A DNA stretch of 64,000 nucleotides. It comes from Candidatus Heimdallarchaeota archaeon (GTDB taxonomy: Archaea; Asgardarchaeota; Heimdallarchaeia; JABLTI01). Shown here in pieces: positions 53,344-63,557 of this stretch. How positions within the stretch are numbered: position 1 is the stretch's first letter; the number at the start of each line of letters is the position of its first letter. The position numbers and the translations under genes are program-made. The notes beneath the pieces were generated by a model. The model saw nothing but the letters and a program-made list of their open reading frames with translations, ran no database searches and had not been told where the DNA came from. The DNA is taken from NCBI GenBank assembly GCA_018238155.1, contig JABCTZ010000036.1, positions 192,001-256,000 on the forward strand, given 5' to 3'.

Positions 53344-54063
53344 TTACACTAATTTCTCTAAATCATCCAATGAAGTTTTCGCCACTGTTCGAACAACAGG
53401 ATGTTTATCATTCTTATGAGCTTTAAGTAGCGCTTCTTTTACCTTAGTGTCATTGACCTCTCCAAAATTACGCGCAACCTTCTGTCTGAATCTAAAATCG
53501 GCATCATTTTCTAATGATTCAATTAACTCTGGTAAAAATGATTGCAGATGATTCTTGTTCATGATGAGTATTCTGGCAGCATTCATTCTAGTAACATAAT
53601 AAGATGCATTTTTCAACGCTGATAATAATCCGGGGATAATTTCTCCAAAATTCTCATATTCCATTTCACCAAGAGCAATTGCTGCCATATCTCCGATGCC
53701 ATTTTTTTCTCCAAGATATTTTACTATGTAGGGTATTGCTTCTTGTGCTTTTGTTGCTCTCCAACCTAATCTTTGAATTGTTTGGAAGCAGATTCGTGAA
53801 TCAAGTTTTTCGTATTGGATTATTGTTGTGAGAATTGGAATATAGTGTTCATCTTCTAAATAGGGTAGAACTTGTCTGTAAATAATGGATAAAAGAATGA
53901 GATTTTCAGCTATCTTTTCATCTTGTACAAATCCAAGTATTAGTTCCCCAACTTTTTCTTTATTCTTCTGAACAAATGGTTCGACAATGTAGTTAGGTCT
54001 ACTCAATTCCTGTTCTATTAATTTGAATAATTCTTCTTCAATTCCAGTAGTTTTTGTTGTCAT
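53344..54063 (-). CDS. HEAT-repeat protein
   Basis: AAIALGEM, LLSALKNASYYVTRMNAA, DKHPVVRTVAKTSL. Confidence 0.8.
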   Translation of the reverse strand: MTTKTTGIEEELFKLIEQELSRPNYIVEPFVQKNKEKVGELILGFVQDEKIAENLILLSIIYRQVLPYLEDEHYIPILTTIIQYEKLDSRICFQTIQRLGWRATKAQEAIPYIVKYLGEKNGIGDMAAIALGEMEYENFGEIIPGLLSALKNASYYVTRMNAARILIMNKNHLQSFLPELIESLENDADFRFRQKVARNFGEVNDTKVKEALLKAHKNDKHPVVRTVAKTSLDDLEKLV

Positions 54064-54076
54064 TATATTTCACCAT

Positions 54077-55165
54077 CTATTGTTCAGCAAGCCTCTTTTT
54101 CCAATAATCTCGAGGGTCAGTAAACCTTAGTCCACTTCGTAGATTGAAAGGACAAACAGATATACATGTGGAACATTCTCCACCGTTATCGGTCCAAAAT
54201 TCATAACATTTGTCGACATTTACAGCCCATCGATAAATTCCTTTGTTGTTAGAATCACTATACGTTTTGAAAGAAGGTTCATCATCAAATGAGATCGCTT
54301 CATTTTCACATGCCTCTGCACATCTCTTACACTTTCGACAATAATCCGTCAATCCAAAATCTACTTTTTCATCATGTAGTAAAGGCATATCAGTAAATAC
54401 TTTGCAAAGTCTGACTCGAGCACCATGATCTCGAGTTGTTAATAACCCATTTCGCCCTACTTGACCAAGACCGGCTTCTACTGCTATGGGTATTGATAAT
54501 GCAGTATCATTTCCTGTTGGAACTGCACGATAACCTAATTTTCTAATAAATTCTGCAAGGGAAGAAACAATGAATGCCATTTGAGAATACCCCATACCGC
54601 TTGCAAACCCTTGAGTCATTGAAGGTGAAGTGCTAATCGTATCTGCATCCATTACAGCACCAATGGCAATTACTGAAGTCATTCCTTCGGGCATTTCAAT
54701 AGGCGTTTCAACTCTATCTTCTGTATAAGTCCATTTCTCATTGTAAGGGGCTATTCCAACCATATCTGCCCCAAAGGATTTTGTGACTGCTTTTATTGTC
54801 CTTGTCACTTTATCGATATTGTTATCATTTATCTCATAGACTTCAGGAAGTGCATCTGGCATCATGTTACTAGGCTTGGCAAGCTTTTCCCAAGAAAAAG
54901 CCCGACGGAAGTAATCATGAACAGTCCATGAAGCAATTGCTAATGCATGATCAATTTGAGTATAACCTGGTTGCTTTTCATCCAAAATGTCTGGAACTTT
55001 ATCATACATGTATACTTTATATGTTTTCATGTCTTCATCCCAGTTAACCCTGCCAAAAATACTGTCGTATTCACTAAAAGGCTCAAAATCCTCCTTTAGA
55101 GTAAATTCTGGAGATACAGTGAGTTTTTTATTTTCTGTTCCTTCTTTTTTCTTTGTGTCAGACAT
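54077..55165 (-). CDS. Reductive dehalogenase-like cobalamin/4Fe-4S protein (no Tat leader)
   Basis: FGADMVGIA, FIRKLGYRA, SIPIAVEAGLGQVGRNG, KVFTDMPL, CRKCKRCAEAC, CSTCISVCPF. Confidence 0.85.
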   Translation of the reverse strand: MSDTKKKEGTENKKLTVSPEFTLKEDFEPFSEYDSIFGRVNWDEDMKTYKVYMYDKVPDILDEKQPGYTQIDHALAIASWTVHDYFRRAFSWEKLAKPSNMMPDALPEVYEINDNNIDKVTRTIKAVTKSFGADMVGIAPYNEKWTYTEDRVETPIEMPEGMTSVIAIGAVMDADTISTSPSMTQGFASGMGYSQMAFIVSSLAEFIRKLGYRAVPTGNDTALSIPIAVEAGLGQVGRNGLLTTRDHGARVRLCKVFTDMPLLHDEKVDFGLTDYCRKCKRCAEACENEAISFDDEPSFKTYSDSNNKGIYRWAVNVDKCYEFWTDNGGECSTCISVCPFNLRSGLRFTDPRDYWKKRLAEQ

Positions 55166-57310: not shown

Positions 57311-58279
57311 TTACCGAATTTTCTGTTTGAGTTTTTCATATCCCACTGTGCTGAATGGGCACACCTTAATACAAATAGTGCAACCGTAATTTGAAGCGAA
57401 GTAGGGGAAACACTTCTTATTTTCTATATGCGTTAAAAGCCCGTTCTCGTGTTTTATTGGCTTCTCATAGATTGCTTTTGGTGGGCACTTTTTAATACAG
57501 TTGCCACAAGTTGCACAGTATTCGGGAATCCATTCATGTGGATTTTCGGTAGCAAATGGAAGATTTGTAATATTCGTAAACACCGCTGCTAATCTTACTC
57601 GAGAGCCAAATTTGGGAGTAATCAATAATCCATGTCTACCGAACCATCCAAGACCAGCATTTTTTGCTAATGGTGGATACAATACTAACCCACCAAGAGG
57701 ATGAGATGCATGAGCAGAATAACCATGATCACGTAAGAAAGTAGCTACTTTATTTGCGGTAATTCCTAAATTGTTGTAAGTTTCCATGATCATAATTATA
57801 GTATCCTGATGAGGAGCTTTAGCAATACTATTTTTATCCATCTCCATTACTAAAACAATAGCATTATCATGTAAGACTGCTTTATCTTTGAAAATTAGAT
57901 TACGCGGTAGTTTTGTAAAACCGATATTAGCTACTCCTTGAGCTCGGCAGAATTCTTTCAATTGTTGAAGAAAGATATCATCAATAGTCTCTTTTGGATT
58001 CTGAGTGTTTTTGCTAATACTGTTAAGTGATATTTTAATATTTTTTATATTGGAACGCATTAGATTGGTTGTCTTATTAATCATTAATGATTGCTCTTTC
58101 CCTTGTTCAACACTCTCAATAATACTTAAAGGAATATTAAATCTAGAAGGAGATTGCTCATTAGCAGTAATAACTCCTGGTTTTTCTGCTATTGCATTTT
58201 CTTTTTGATCAACTTTGTTAACAGAGGGTTTTACTACTCTTCTAAAAAAAAATCTTTTGATTTTTAAACCAATTTTCAT
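57311..58279 (-). CDS. Reductive dehalogenase/QueG-like cobalamin-4Fe-4S protein
   Basis: FLRDHGYSA, LAKNAGLGWFGRHGLLITPKFGSRVRLAAVFT, CATCGNCIKKCP, CTICIKVCPF. Confidence 0.8.
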   Translation of the reverse strand: MKIGLKIKRFFFRRVVKPSVNKVDQKENAIAEKPGVITANEQSPSRFNIPLSIIESVEQGKEQSLMINKTTNLMRSNIKNIKISLNSISKNTQNPKETIDDIFLQQLKEFCRAQGVANIGFTKLPRNLIFKDKAVLHDNAIVLVMEMDKNSIAKAPHQDTIIMIMETYNNLGITANKVATFLRDHGYSAHASHPLGGLVLYPPLAKNAGLGWFGRHGLLITPKFGSRVRLAAVFTNITNLPFATENPHEWIPEYCATCGNCIKKCPPKAIYEKPIKHENGLLTHIENKKCFPYFASNYGCTICIKVCPFSTVGYEKLKQKIR

Positions 58280-58566: not shown

Positions 58567-58739
58567 CTATAATATTAGATGTATTAAATTACTATTTAAA
58601 AATTGACATTGTATTCTAGTAAGTAATTTTTTTACAAATAAAGTATTTAATACAATAATTAGCAATGAAAAGATTTATTCTTATGAAAGCGGATAGAATG
58701 TGTAAAAACCTAGCTGAATATATATGAGGTAAATACTAC

Positions 58740-59993
58740 GTGATAGATATCGGTTTAGAATCACTCTTAATAATGGATAAAGCTGGCATTCCACTACTCT
58801 TTCAAAAGCTGGATCCAAAACGTTCAGATATCGAACCCGTTCTTCTGTCAGGTTTTTTAACAGCAGTAAAAGCTTTTTCAACAACTATTATTGATGATAC
58901 AATTTCTGATTTTCATGTTGATTATGGAAAACGATTAATTACCATCTTGTCGGGACAAAAGATTGTTTTCGCAGCAATTCATAGCCATAAATCAACTGAG
59001 AGAATAATACCTGTTCTAGCACCTTTGTTGAAAGAATTTGAAAGTCAATATTATAAAGAAGAACATATCGGTGAATCAGGACCATTAGAACAGTATGAAC
59101 CATTTAGAGAACGAATTGCCACTGTAATGGGAATTAGTAACCCTTCCTTAGATTGGATTCCATTCTATTCTGAAACAAATGGAGTAAAAGTAACTGATGA
59201 CAATAAAGTGAAGAATTTGATTGATAATCATTATTCTATACACGAAATTGTGAAACAAAGTAATCTCTCTGAACTAGAAGTATTGAATGAAATCTCTAAG
59301 TTGTGGGCAATTGGATTAATACGCTTCCGAAATATCTTAACCCAAAGAGATATTGTTATTCCTACAAGTAAAATTGCTAGTTATTTACAACCCTCTACGC
59401 TTGCATGGCAAGAACTCTATAAGGTTTTTCCAAATTTGATAAATGTTATTCCTCACATTCTGAATCATCTGGATGGAAGAACAACAGTAGGACAGGTTCT
59501 GAATGATTTAGTTTCAGAAGGAATTGAGAATGTTTTTTGGTTAATGGATTATTTATATATCAATGATGCTCTGTCCATTCTTTCACCGGAAAAAAGAAGA
59601 ATTCTAATGGCAAAAGAAATTTTACAAAAAAGTTTGGAAATTGCTTCAGGAATATATTCTCGAGAGGAAACCATTTGGCACCTCAAATCTGTTTTAAATG
59701 AGATACGTTCTCCAGAAATAGTCTCACAAATACGATTACAGAAGGAGAATTGGACTATTGAATATAGTTTTCTGGTGTACGAAGGTTTGACACCTGAGAA
59801 AGTTTTGCATTTATATGATATTTGGTTAGAAATTCTTAGAATGTTTATCTTTTCATTGGATGAGAAGAAAAGAAAAAAATATATTGAGCAGCTTACAAAA
59901 GAGCTCGATTTCGATTTCTTCGAAAAATATCGAAGTGAAGACATGGATGGGTTCGAAGAGTTTGCCTTTTGGTTGGAATTAGTGTTTATTTGA
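58740..59993 (+). CDS. Longin-like domain + tandem winged-helix protein (NPRL2-like architecture)
   Basis: LLIMDKAGIPLL...PVLLSGFLTAVKAF longin; WIP...LIDNHYSIHEIV...LWAIGLIRF and HLDGRTTVGQV wHTH repeats. Confidence 0.65.
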   Translation: MIDIGLESLLIMDKAGIPLLFQKLDPKRSDIEPVLLSGFLTAVKAFSTTIIDDTISDFHVDYGKRLITILSGQKIVFAAIHSHKSTERIIPVLAPLLKEFESQYYKEEHIGESGPLEQYEPFRERIATVMGISNPSLDWIPFYSETNGVKVTDDNKVKNLIDNHYSIHEIVKQSNLSELEVLNEISKLWAIGLIRFRNILTQRDIVIPTSKIASYLQPSTLAWQELYKVFPNLINVIPHILNHLDGRTTVGQVLNDLVSEGIENVFWLMDYLYINDALSILSPEKRRILMAKEILQKSLEIASGIYSREETIWHLKSVLNEIRSPEIVSQIRLQKENWTIEYSFLVYEGLTPEKVLHLYDIWLEILRMFIFSLDEKKRKKYIEQLTKELDFDFFEKYRSEDMDGFEEFAFWLELVFI

Positions 59994-60007
59994 AAGGAGG
60001 AAAAAGA

Positions 60008-60739
60008 ATGAAAATTGATCCCGAAAAAGCGATTAAGATAAAACCTGGTATTTGGTGGATAGGCTGGCCTGATTATCAAGCGGGGTTTTCTAATAATCCC
60101 TATTTGATAAAAGATGGAGACGAAATTGTTATCATTGATCCTGGTTCAAGACTAGATGCTCATTGGAGTATTGTTAAAAAGAAAATTGAATCCATTGTTC
60201 CACTTGATAAAATAACTATGGTCATTGCAACACATCAGGATCCTGATTTGTGTGCTTGTATACCCTTCATTGAAGATGCAGTTGGGAAAGACAATTTTGA
60301 ATTGGTTACTACTGATAGAACCTCACTTTTTATGCCTTATTATGGTATCAAATCTGAAGTGACAACTGTTGAAGATGGAGATAAAATGGAAATAGGAGAC
60401 AATGGAAGAATTCTACAGTTCATAACAAGTCCGTATTTACATTTTCCAGGTGCAATGGTTGTTTATGATACGCTAGAAAAAATTCTCTTCTCTTCTGATA
60501 TTTTTGGTGCATTTTCAGTTGATTGGAATTTTTATGCCAATAAATACTATCATGAAGCCATAAAATCTTTTGCTGAAACCTACTTACCTGAACAACGACA
60601 TGTAATTAATTTTCTAGATAAAATAAAGAATATTGATATTGATCTGATTTGTCCGCAACATGGTTCCATTATTGAACGAAAACATATTCCTAAAATAATT
60701 GATGTCATGAGAAATTTGGAGGTTGGAGTATGGAAATAA
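60008..60739 (+). CDS. MBL-fold di-iron protein, ODP (oxygen-binding di-iron protein)-like
   Basis: NPYLI..IIDPG, HQDPD, YLHFPG, LFSSDIFGA, ICPQHG; no flavodoxin domain; GGAGG SD before ATG 60008. Confidence 0.8.
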   Translation: MKIDPEKAIKIKPGIWWIGWPDYQAGFSNNPYLIKDGDEIVIIDPGSRLDAHWSIVKKKIESIVPLDKITMVIATHQDPDLCACIPFIEDAVGKDNFELVTTDRTSLFMPYYGIKSEVTTVEDGDKMEIGDNGRILQFITSPYLHFPGAMVVYDTLEKILFSSDIFGAFSVDWNFYANKYYHEAIKSFAETYLPEQRHVINFLDKIKNIDIDLICPQHGSIIERKHIPKIIDVMRNLEVGVWK

Positions 60740-61056
60740 GCTATCAACAAGCAACAGAATTCGCCCGATTGTTGATCATGAGGGGTTTTGGTTTGTATGG
60801 TGATAAGCAAATGATAAAAATCTGTAAGGATTCCGGAATCGATTGCAAAACAAGCGACTCATACGACTTTCCTGATAGCGAGAATTTAGAAGAAGCTTTG
60901 AGGAAATTGATGATTAATTATTCATCGTTTAATTTACCGGCTAAAATGACTGTATTAGTTCTTGCTAAGAAGTTTGGACTTGAAATACCCGAAGAGCTTA
61001 AATCTTCAAAGAAAAAGAAATCAAAATATAAGCAGAAATCCGAATCCAAATCTTGA
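60730..61056 (+). CDS. Small helical hypothetical protein with basic tail, translationally coupled to ODP-like gene
   Basis: 108-aa ORF overlapping the upstream stop by 10 nt. Confidence 0.7.
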   Translation: MEISYQQATEFARLLIMRGFGLYGDKQMIKICKDSGIDCKTSDSYDFPDSENLEEALRKLMINYSSFNLPAKMTVLVLAKKFGLEIPEELKSSKKKKSKYKQKSESKS

Positions 61057-61411
61057 ATTCATCTGGAAAAGGTTTTTTCCCTTCAAAAAAAAGGTGTTAA
61101 ATAACTCACATTTGAATTGATCATACAATAATAAACCAAACTCCCAATTAGATTATGGAGATAGATGTTTTCATCAAAATCTAGATTACCTGGGAATTTA
61201 TTATTTCTCTCAGTAACTACTTGGTTTTTTTGATATTTTTCATAATGTTTTAAGCGAGATTTAGTTTTCTTACTATTGAAACCTTTTTCTCAGTTTTAAT
61301 GTTTCTACTCAAAATAATATTCTAAATAAAAACAGTCATTTTTTATGAAGAAGACATTTATAAAATACTAAATCTATCTTACAAGACAACGTTATAATAA
61401 AGATAGAAAAA

Positions 61412-62791
61412 GTGATCATTATGGCAGATGAATTTTTTCTTACGATAAATATTGCAATGACTATTTATGCAATTTTAGCGGCAATCATTTTTTGGTTCTC
61501 TTGGAGAAAAAGATCTGATATTCTTTTCATCTTTATAGGAGCTATTGTTTATTCAATAGGACATACTTTTCTTATCTTCAAGCATTTTAATGATTTCTTT
61601 TCTTTCATTGGAAATGGTGTTATTTTATTAGCTTTAATAATAGTGATTTTCGGAATAATAATTGACTATTGGAAATTAATTGTAAAATCAAGAAAGGAGA
61701 ATGTTATCTTTATCATTTCATTTGCAATAACAATTATTGTTGCCACAGTTTCAATAATACTATTCAATATTTTTCATCTTTTAGATATTTTGAATGCTAT
61801 TATGCTACCAATGATTGCTTTGCTTTCACTATCAATATATTTCATCACGAGAATTTATCAAAAAGAGCAAACAATAACAAGATTATCCACGACGTTTACT
61901 CTAATAACAGCTACATTAACGGCTAGTTCAGCAATATTGGCAGTCTATTTTGACTGGGGTCTTGCACTAAATATTATATTGAGCTTTATATTTCAAACAT
62001 TTATTATGATAATTGGTTTAGCTGCAATTGTAGAAGAAAGAATTACACATTCTGAGGAGAAATATCGACTATTAAGTGAGCAATTAGAAGAGAAAGTAAT
62101 CGATAGAACTAAACAACTAGAAACAGTGAACACTGAACTAGAAACTTTTTCATATTCTGTAAGTCACGATTTGCGTTCTCCTTTAAGGAGCATCAGTGGT
62201 TTTGCAAATATACTACAGAAAGAATTTGCTTTAGAACTTGGTGAAGAGGGAAGGAGCTATATTAAACGAATTATGGCTAATACTAATCGAATGAGTGAGC
62301 TAATTAATGATCTATTGGATCTAGCACATATTTCACGCTCTGATCTGTTCCCAGAAATGATTAATTTAAGTGAAATAGCTAATGAAATAATGACAAATTT
62401 AAAACAGATAAATCCTGGTCGCAATATTGATTTTGTAGTTGAAGAAGAAATGTTAGCAAAATGCGATGCAAAACTTATTCGTATTGTCCTGGAAAATCTT
62501 CTTAGTAATGCAGTTAAGTTTACAAAGAATATTGAATGTGCGAAAATATGTTTCGAAATGATAGAACAAGATAATGAAATAGCTTTTTCAATAAGAGATA
62601 ATGGTGTTGGTTTTGATATGGCTTATAATGAAAAACTATTTGGTTTATTTCAACGCCTTCACAGTTCAGAAGAATTTGAAGGGACAGGAGTTGGACTCGT
62701 GACTGTAAAACGAATTATCGACCGACATCTGGGTAAAATTTGGGCTGAAGCCAAAGTTGATGAAGGAGCTACTTTTTATTTCAGGCTTTAA
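61412..62791 (+). CDS. Membrane sensor histidine kinase (multi-TM + HisKA + HATPase)
   Basis: About 7 TMs; FSYSVSHDLRSPL H-box, NLLSNAVKF, DNGVGFD, FQRLH, GTGVGL. Confidence 0.93.
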   Translation: MIIMADEFFLTINIAMTIYAILAAIIFWFSWRKRSDILFIFIGAIVYSIGHTFLIFKHFNDFFSFIGNGVILLALIIVIFGIIIDYWKLIVKSRKENVIFIISFAITIIVATVSIILFNIFHLLDILNAIMLPMIALLSLSIYFITRIYQKEQTITRLSTTFTLITATLTASSAILAVYFDWGLALNIILSFIFQTFIMIIGLAAIVEERITHSEEKYRLLSEQLEEKVIDRTKQLETVNTELETFSYSVSHDLRSPLRSISGFANILQKEFALELGEEGRSYIKRIMANTNRMSELINDLLDLAHISRSDLFPEMINLSEIANEIMTNLKQINPGRNIDFVVEEEMLAKCDAKLIRIVLENLLSNAVKFTKNIECAKICFEMIEQDNEIAFSIRDNGVGFDMAYNEKLFGLFQRLHSSEEFEGTGVGLVTVKRIIDRHLGKIWAEAKVDEGATFYFRL

Positions 62792-62944: not shown

Positions 62945-62978
62945 TATTCTTATATGATACTATTCTCATATGAGAATA
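62945..62978. promoter_or_regulatory. Palindromic operator(s) at the 5' end of the PadR gene
   Basis: Perfect 18-bp palindrome TATTCTCATATGAGAATA (62961-62978) and degenerate copy TATTCTTATATGATACTA (62945-62962). Confidence 0.65.
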
Positions 62979-63557
62979 ATGTTTGGTGGCGAAGAATTGA
63001 ACTCGAAAGAATTTATCATTTTATCTCTCATAAATGAAGAATCATCACATGCTTACATACTTGAGGAAAAAATAGAACAAAGAGGAATGAGAACTTGGAC
63101 AGAAATTGGTTTTTCCTCTATCTATCGAATTCTCAATAATCTTGAGAAGATGAAGTTTGTTAGTAGTGAGATTATTCAAGAAGATGGAGATGCACGAATA
63201 AAGAAGAGATATACAATAACAAAAAAGGGGCAAGAAGAGCTAAAGCAAGCTGTAAAACAAGCATTAGCTATTTCTGAGCGATGTAAATCTGATTTTGCTA
63301 TTGGTCTATCAAATATCTGGTTATTAAAGAAAGAAGAAGCACTGATTGCACTTGAACTATTTCTACAATCAATACACAAACGACGAGAAATAATGATCGA
63401 ACGCTGGAACCAGATTGGTGGACAAGGAAAAATACCTTTTCTAATCGATGCACTCTTTGAACATGGAGATGTAGTGAGCAAAGCCGAATTGCAATTTGTT
63501 GAGAGTTTAGTACAGAAAATAAAGAAGCATGGAATAACACATGTTATTAATAAATAG
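62970..63557 (+). CDS. PadR family transcriptional regulator (start may be 62979 or later)
   Basis: IILSLI..ESSHAY, IGFSSIYRILNNLEK, KKRYTITKKGQEEL. Confidence 0.9.
   Translation: MRIMFGGEELNSKEFIILSLINEESSHAYILEEKIEQRGMRTWTEIGFSSIYRILNNLEKMKFVSSEIIQEDGDARIKKRYTITKKGQEELKQAVKQALAISERCKSDFAIGLSNIWLLKKEEALIALELFLQSIHKRREIMIERWNQIGGQGKIPFLIDALFEHGDVVSKAELQFVESLVQKIKKHGITHVINK

Follow-up and report, generated by a model that had tools for sequence, protein, structure and literature searches.

The window analysed here, a stretch of 64,000 nucleotides from Candidatus Heimdallarchaeota archaeon (contig JABCTZ010000036.1, positions 192,001 to 256,000), carries at 58740-61056 on its + strand three genes that the listing of open reading frames (ORFs) and the raw sequence indicate to be translationally coupled. 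We refer to the first gene of this trio as g1, to the middle gene as ODP and to the third, small gene as g3. A first-pass annotation of this DNA, made from the letters alone, had described three tightly coupled genes with a GGAGG motif in a 14-bp gap and then a 10-bp overlap, and all of these coordinates were verified in the sequence: the stop codon of g1 occupies 59991-59993, the gap leads to the ODP ATG at 60008, and the remaining features are as given in Table 1. The start of g1 is supported by its homologs, which open with MIDIGLE. The proteins encoded are a distant relative of NPRL2/NPRL3, a di-iron protein of the ODP family and a member of a small helical family that accompanies ODP. The genes form an operon that is conserved in Asgard archaea. 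The pairing of ODP with g3 extends from bacteria to archaea, and Rosetta-stone fusions join ODP to g3 and g1 to g3.

Table 1. Features of the trio and its immediate 3' surroundings, in window coordinates
Feature	Coordinates	Strand	Basis or remark
g1, NPRL2/NPRL3-like protein, 417 aa	58740..59993	+	GTG start; GAGG at 58726-58729, ten bases 5' of start
g1 longin domain, aa 4-135	58749..59144	+	Structure alignment; topology beta-beta-alpha-beta-beta-beta-alpha
g1 tandem winged-helix region, aa ~150-282	59187..59585	+	Profile alignment to 6ces_N, secondary structure, HTH_NPRL3 matches in relatives
g1 C-terminal all-helical domain, aa 283-417	59586..59990	+	Predicted model, pLDDT ~80-96
GGAGG ribosome-binding motif	59996..60000	+	7 nt 5' of ODP start; read from sequence
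ODP-family di-iron protein of metallo-beta-lactamase (MBL) fold, 243 aa, without flavodoxin domain	60008..60739	+	Pfam ODP PF19583
ODP ligand codons H76, D78, D80	60233-60235, 60239-60241, 60245-60247	+	Read from sequence
ODP ligand codons H145, D164, H218	60440-60442, 60497-60499, 60659-60661	+	Read from sequence
g3, 108-aa four-helix protein	60730..61056	+	ODP/g3 overlap of 10 bp
g3 Lys-rich tail, aa 91-108	61000-61053	+	Charge of +8 over 18 residues
T6 run, likely operon end	61073..61078	+	17 nt past g3 stop; read from sequence
Membrane histidine kinase (HisKA + HATPase_c), neighbour only, outside the conserved module	61412..62791	+	Pfam

The same three genes are neighbours in about 20 Asgard loci, counted at species level, whose flanks are unrelated and whose gene order takes either of two forms; hence, the arrangement is not due to chance, and the association proposed for this one locus by the first-pass annotation holds across Asgard archaea. 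These loci span the Heimdall, Thor and Loki lineages and include the cultured Lokiarchaeum ossiferum. Homologs of g1 with 56%, 59%, 35% and 34% identity are each found in a g1-ODP-small gene arrangement, with the same 10-bp overlap and with different flanks. A phylum-wide search recovered full-length g1 from 4 of the 11 genomes of the window's genus and from the majority of the genomes in one further family, frequently in two paralogous copies, while elsewhere its occurrence was sporadic. Linkage was surveyed in 80 ODP loci from species-representative genomes, among which g3 lies directly 3' of ODP in 23 of 23 loci of the Asgard type. A g1 gene was found by hidden Markov model (HMM) in 19 of these 23 loci and, in H. 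endolithica, by homology to an ORF of a neighbour; in the remaining three, no more than ~0.7 kb of contig lies upstream of ODP. The gene order is g1-ODP-g3 in Heimdall/Thor-type genomes and ODP-g3-g1 in Loki-type genomes, including L. ossiferum and Harpocratesius. The L. ossiferum locus (L060; CP104013, 5865143-5873859) shows the latter order in a cultured, and thus experimental, system. One Thorarchaeota locus has a second g1-like ORF (L063:8197-8703) ~1.9 kb downstream of its ODP-g3-g1 unit.

The sequence of the middle gene identifies it as of the ODP type, being neither an FprA protein nor a hydrolase. The motifs T-H76-Q-D78-P-D80-L, L-H145-F-P-G, S-S-D164-I-F-G and P-Q-H218-G are all present, as the first-pass annotation had read them, and no flavodoxin domain was matched by Pfam in the 243 residues. 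Pfam ODP (PF19583) matches over the full model (2-194) at 173.9 bits versus a cut-off of 27.2 (E 4.6e-51), but this model also matches the MBL domain of flavodiiron proteins in control genomes and so is not discriminating alone. Among solved structures, the best match is to the oxygen-binding diiron protein 6qrq (E 2.7e-24), which ranks above flavodiiron proteins and aligns with the window ODP at each of the four metal-binding motifs. The full set of six ligands known from solved ODPs (H-x-D-x-D, H, D, H) is retained; across 36 homologs, each of H76, D78, D80, H145, D164 and H218 is either invariant or conserved to 90% or more. D80 is followed by a histidine in flavodiiron proteins, by Leu81 in the window ODP and by Val in 6qrq. 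The NCBIfam flavorubredoxin model NF008887 scores 83.5 bits versus a cut-off of 635 and is matched only at positions 31-238 of 396, which is the MBL half. An FprA/NorV-type flavodiiron protein was rejected as an identity for the middle gene because the flavodoxin domain is lacking and the equivalog score is far under the cut-off. The closest relatives of ODP are 89-91% identical. Bacterial ODP-domain signalling proteins are 40-50% identical to it, with the nearest (Scalindua and others) at 45-52%. The nearest bacterial homologs sit in che or histidine-kinase contexts, and other bacterial relatives are fused to HisKA/HATPase, GGDEF, GAF or REC domains. From this homology and from the conserved ligands, we infer that ODP has a di-iron site for the binding of Fe(II) and O2. 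In Treponema denticola, ODP is described as an O2/Fe sensor that works via a cognate soluble receptor (PMC7666581, PMC6978683).

A di-iron site could also serve catalysis or metal handling, with ODP acting as a scavenger of O2, NO or peroxide or as an iron donor and with g1 and g3 as assembly or accessory factors. The MBL di-iron fold is common to flavodiiron O2/NO reductases. Moreover, neither COX1 nor cytochrome bd oxidase was detected in the window genome, which is 90.7% complete, and an organism seemingly without terminal oxidases would benefit from scavenging O2. We nevertheless regard this explanation as quite unlikely. Flavodoxin and rubredoxin domains are lacking from the operon, as is any redox partner, the score against the flavodiiron equivalog is as low as stated above, position 81 holds Leu in place of the flavodiiron His, and the nearest relatives of ODP either carry fused kinase, GGDEF or REC modules or are encoded inside che operons. 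In addition, the same genome has a separate 396-aa ORF that also matches the ODP model and may be a true FprA.

The third gene is the more informative piece of the trio; by sequence it is a member of a widespread, ODP-associated family that has no name. The family alignment defines a four-helix module of ~85 residues in which R18 and G24 are invariant, and the predicted model of g3 has a pLDDT of 80.6. No Pfam model matches g3, and Foldseek against the PDB gave no significant match; resemblances in the Atlas to V4R (template modelling [TM] score 0.53) and to H-NOX (TM 0.47) were set aside as too weak and without sequence support. By plain search, homologs of g3 are confined to Asgard archaea. 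The nearest bacterial ODPs (Scalindua and others) are, however, followed by an ORF of 81-128 aa. A BLASTP comparison between g3 and the small protein of Scalindua found no match, but a profile comparison (hhalign) of the g3 family with this ODP-adjacent 92-aa protein did, at Prob 93% and E 3.5e-7 over nearly the full length. An iterated HMM then placed the g3 module beside ODP in ~30 bacterial loci that cover seven phyla or more, and g3 adjoins ODP in ~53 of the 80 surveyed loci. A profile search of 1.84 billion representatives returned 153 g3 clusters, mostly stand-alone proteins of 80-110 aa, with ODP-g3, g3-CheB, REC-g3 and g1-g3 fusions among the remainder. Where stand-alone matches were checked for context, an ODP gene precedes in 3 of 3. 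Fusions of ODP with g3 occur in L111 (Nitrospirae), P0204 and P0215, and a fold search of the Atlas independently found a cluster with 117 members, ODP proteins of 369 aa in which the tail fits the g3 model (TM 0.63). In Scalinduaceae (L067:2993-3901 and L065:2941-3888), a g3-like module takes the place of the receiver domain before a CheB methylesterase, directly upstream of ODP, and in P0232 a receiver domain is fused ahead of g3. Stand-alone Asgard g3 proteins have a Lys/Arg-rich tail, which the fused and bacterial forms lack and which could bind membrane or nucleic acid. The first-pass annotation had called g3 a small helical partner. Its helical nature and its genetic linkage to ODP stand, while the breadth of the family and its identity with the tail of an NPRL2-like paralog, described below, had been missed. 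As the ODP-g3 pair looks bacterial in origin, the further proposal that the trio preserves an "ancestral" input is not established.

By profile and by predicted fold, g1 is a distant relative of NPRL2/NPRL3, in agreement with the longin and winged-helix architecture first read from its sequence. The AlphaFold2 model (pLDDT 85.4, pTM 0.80) has a longin domain, two winged helices and a helical domain of 135 aa, the last of which was fold-searched as part of the whole model only. A search with the g1 family profile found human NPRL2 at E 3.3e-5 (122-279 of the query against 155-324 of chain 6ces_N) and yeast Npr2 at E 0.012, with no other credible match. PF24064 (HTH_NPRL3) is above its cut-off in 2 of 28 g1 homologs (best 2.8e-8), and the top matches of the model in the PDB by Foldseek are NPRL2, Npr2 and NPRL3 chains (E 2.6e-5 to 1e-3). 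When the longin domain (residues 4-135) was aligned with VIA-align, Z was 13.2 to the COPI longin subunit 9qpq_L, 13.1 to the Sec22b longin 1ifq_A and 11.4 to the Lokiarchaeota longin 8yqg_A. Two features mark GAP-type (GTPase-activating protein) longins, a GP motif that precedes strand 2 and an arginine finger with a catalytic role (PMC12290439). The longin domain of g1 has a G16-x-P18 motif (G16-I-P18) ahead of strand 2 and a Y62-G63-K-R65 hairpin; P18, Y62 and G63 do not vary among homologs, G16 is conserved to 90% or more and R65 is present in 25 of 28 sequences. The sequence homologs of g1 number 39, all of them Asgard where named. NPRL2-like proteins have already been published from Asgard archaea by Liu et al. 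(bioRxiv 10.1101/2020.10.19.343400, 2020/21), who mention no di-iron or MBL partner.

A connection between g3 and g1, and from there to GTPases, is provided by a paralog of g1. In tblastn searches, g3 matches residues 433-526 of a 526-aa g1 paralog, which is hence a g1-g3 fusion (P0038-type) in which the g3 module comes directly after the C-terminal helical domain of g1. This fusion is present in 21 loci, from Thor-type genomes and with no adjoining ODP. In 19 of the 21, its neighbour is a gene for a Ras-family GTPase (Pfam Ras 1.7e-42), one exception being cut by the contig end. In a maximum-likelihood tree (MAFFT and FastTree), the fused genes are monophyletic (support 1.0) and fall within a larger clade (support 0.975) made up of trio-type g1 genes, so that the fusion arose from an ancestor of the trio type. 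Examples of the fused gene are found at L008:3193-5390 and at L018, L021, L024-L029 and L031-L040; the GTPase gene, where present, follows it and encodes 171 aa. Most of these loci belong to a single Asgard family, in which the ODP trio is found as well.

The winged helices of g1 raise the alternative that the trio is an oxygen- or iron-responsive transcription regulator, in which these two domains would bind DNA and ODP and g3 would modulate the binding. Archaeal regulators are commonly winged helix-turn-helix proteins fused to sensor domains. Single relatives of g1 have weak matches to TrmB (6e-4) and PqqD, and the polybasic tail of stand-alone Asgard g3 could touch nucleic acid. The winged helices of g1 align, however, with those of NPRL2/NPRL3, which mediate protein contacts, and g1 is acidic (isoelectric point 5.1, with 4.4 for the second winged helix). 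No DNA-binding family was at threshold for the window g1, the fused paralog pairs with a GTPase and not with regulon-like neighbours, and the flanks of the trio vary in every lineage. Overall, regulation of transcription seems to us improbable, though less so than an enzymatic role for ODP.

Genes around the trio were also considered. The first-pass annotation had pointed to a membrane histidine kinase following on the same strand; the kinase is present, with Pfam HisKA and HATPase_c domains, but is not conserved with the trio. Its position, 355 bp downstream of g3, would allow the trio to feed this kinase (61412-62791) as the accessory sensor of a two-component system, and many bacterial ODPs are indeed fused to or adjoin histidine kinases. 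Unrelated kinases also lie near a few Asgard loci (L059, L053). We consider such a role highly improbable: the kinase is missing from all orthologous loci, including that of an 89%-identical relative with 4-kb flanks, and the long spacer that separates it from g3 contains the T6 run, oligo-T being an archaeal terminator signal. Just 3' of the kinase, a gene for a PadR-family regulator with a weak FUR-like match occupies 62970-63557. Upstream of the trio, a HEAT-repeat gene and genes for two 4Fe-4S proteins, one with a weak reductive-dehalogenase-like match, lie at 53344-55165 and 57311-58279. A relative with 59% identity likewise has the HEAT gene and the first Fe-S gene upstream of its trio, and a HEAT gene is also found in L005. 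As these upstream genes recur in close relatives only, they were judged to reflect lineage synteny and were rejected as members of the module.

We lean, with moderate confidence, towards the interpretation that ODP and g3 act as sensor and transducer of O2/Fe(II) and dock as a pair on an NPRL2-like platform, with a small GTPase as a possible output, and the three alternatives considered above are less well supported. The trio would be one operon encoding a cytoplasmic sensing complex, in which ODP would bind Fe(II) and O2 at its di-iron site like characterised bacterial ODPs. From the comparative genomics of linkage and fusion, g3 would be the cognate transducer that binds ODP, and the single-polypeptide g1-g3 paralog suggests that in Asgard archaea g3 docks on the C terminus of g1. 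The metal or oxygen state of ODP may then alter the conformation or partner binding of the longin and winged-helix platform. The most likely output would be control of a small GTPase encoded elsewhere, via a regulator of the GAP, guanine nucleotide exchange factor (GEF) or platform type. This last step is suggested because longin and roadblock domains are GTPase platforms and because the fused paralog adjoins a Ras-family GTPase gene so consistently. As the genome seems to lack a terminal oxidase, the module probably warns of exposure to oxygen or reports on iron status, rather than serving aerobic metabolism. The window genome has 26 matches to the Gtr1/RagA model (best E 1.4e-32), several inside ORFs of 309-587 aa and all unlinked to the trio, and at least 15 Ras-like genes; these Gtr1/RagA-like and Ras-like genes are candidate clients.

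Several observations weigh against this interpretation. Binding of O2 and Fe, and all contacts among the three proteins, are inferred from sequence. A complex prediction from the alignments of g1, g3 and ODP gave a score of 0.02 with ODP as partner, a value that counts neither for nor against binding. The window g1 alone has no Pfam match, with no Pfam NPR2/NPR3 even at E <= 1, and no match to PDB sequences by phmmer; across 28 g1 relatives, the whole-protein NPR2/NPR3 model gave no match at E <= 0.01. Similarity to NPRL2 thus consists of the family profile at E 3.3e-5 and multi-domain fold matches whose TM is low (0.26-0.29) owing to a different arrangement of the domains relative to one another. 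GAP-type longins have catalytic features that g1 reproduces only approximately, with G-x-P in place of GP and R65 missing in 3 of the 28 sequences. The first-pass annotation had proposed an oxygen input into small-GTPase regulation. This proposal draws indirect support from the Ras-family gene beside the fused paralog in other genomes, but no GTPase gene was linked to the trio in any locus examined. A GTPase gene at L049 was not counted, as it lies 3.2 kb downstream of g3 and behind an opposite-strand gene. Furthermore, the window genome has no fused g1-g3 paralog, and the GTPase found beside that paralog has no close ortholog there (best 37% identity). A more specific version, in which ODP, g3 and g1 form an O2- or iron-gated GAP, GEF or docking platform for Rag-, Arf- or Ras-like GTPases and a forerunner of GATOR1, with g3 as the universal transducer of ODP, is put forward only tentatively and strikes us as rather doubtful.

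The trio can be compared with several known systems. The ODPs of T. denticola (TDE2498, with the soluble receptor TDE2496) and Thermotoga maritima (PDB 6qrq/6qwo and 6qnm/6r9n) are both single-domain MBL proteins of ~245-255 aa. They have the HQDPD, H, D and PQHG motifs in common with the window ODP and likewise have no flavodoxin domain. Those ODPs are reported to serve as auxiliary sensors via a separate partner protein (PMC7666581, PMC6978683). The partners here are g3 and an NPRL2-like longin protein and not a chemoreceptor, O2/Fe binding is predicted, and the host is an Asgard archaeon with no che genes nearby. In bacterial ODP fusions (HisKA/HATPase, GGDEF, GAF, REC), the same sensor domain is the signalling input, but the output is covalently attached, whereas here it would be reached via g3 and a eukaryote-like platform. 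With NPRL2/NPRL3 (yeast Npr2/Npr3), the longin subunits of GATOR1/SEACIT, which is a GAP for RagA/Gtr1, g1 has in common the order of a longin domain followed by winged helices. It differs in its added C-terminal helical domain of 135 aa and its detached or fused g3 tail, in lacking a Pfam NPR2/NPR3 match, in having a di-iron sensor as operon partner and in having G-x-P in place of GP. MglB-MglA, Ragulator/LAMTOR-Rag and the GP-motif longins of Heimdallarchaeia (Traffic 2025, PMC12290439) have the longin/roadblock fold in common with g1 (Z 10-13), and the g1 paralog, like MglB with MglA, is encoded beside a Ras-family GTPase. Unlike these systems, g1 is multi-domain, its trio form has no adjacent GTPase and its catalytic residues are putative.

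The ODP and NPRL2-like families are themselves already known. In the literature searched, we found no description of a conserved coupling between ODP and an NPRL2-like protein, or of the g3 family as the travelling partner of ODP and the tail of an NPRL2-like protein. This small family, which accompanies ODP across bacteria and archaea, may explain how ODPs signal onward. Asgard archaea have many eukaryote-like signalling parts, such as longin and roadblock proteins, small GTPases and NPRL2-like proteins. The operon described here ties one of these eukaryote-like proteins to a sensor of a ligand class known from bacteria, O2/Fe(II), and thereby offers a testable input; our results suggest that oxygen or iron is a signal read by the NPRL2-like protein. 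As the module is present in the cultured L. ossiferum, experiments are feasible. Oxygen sensing in relatives of the ancestor of eukaryotes bears on debates about oxygen and eukaryogenesis. If the more specific version, with a gated GTPase regulator, is correct, the trio would be a prokaryotic forerunner of GATOR1-type signalling with a gas or a metal, and not amino acids, as its input.

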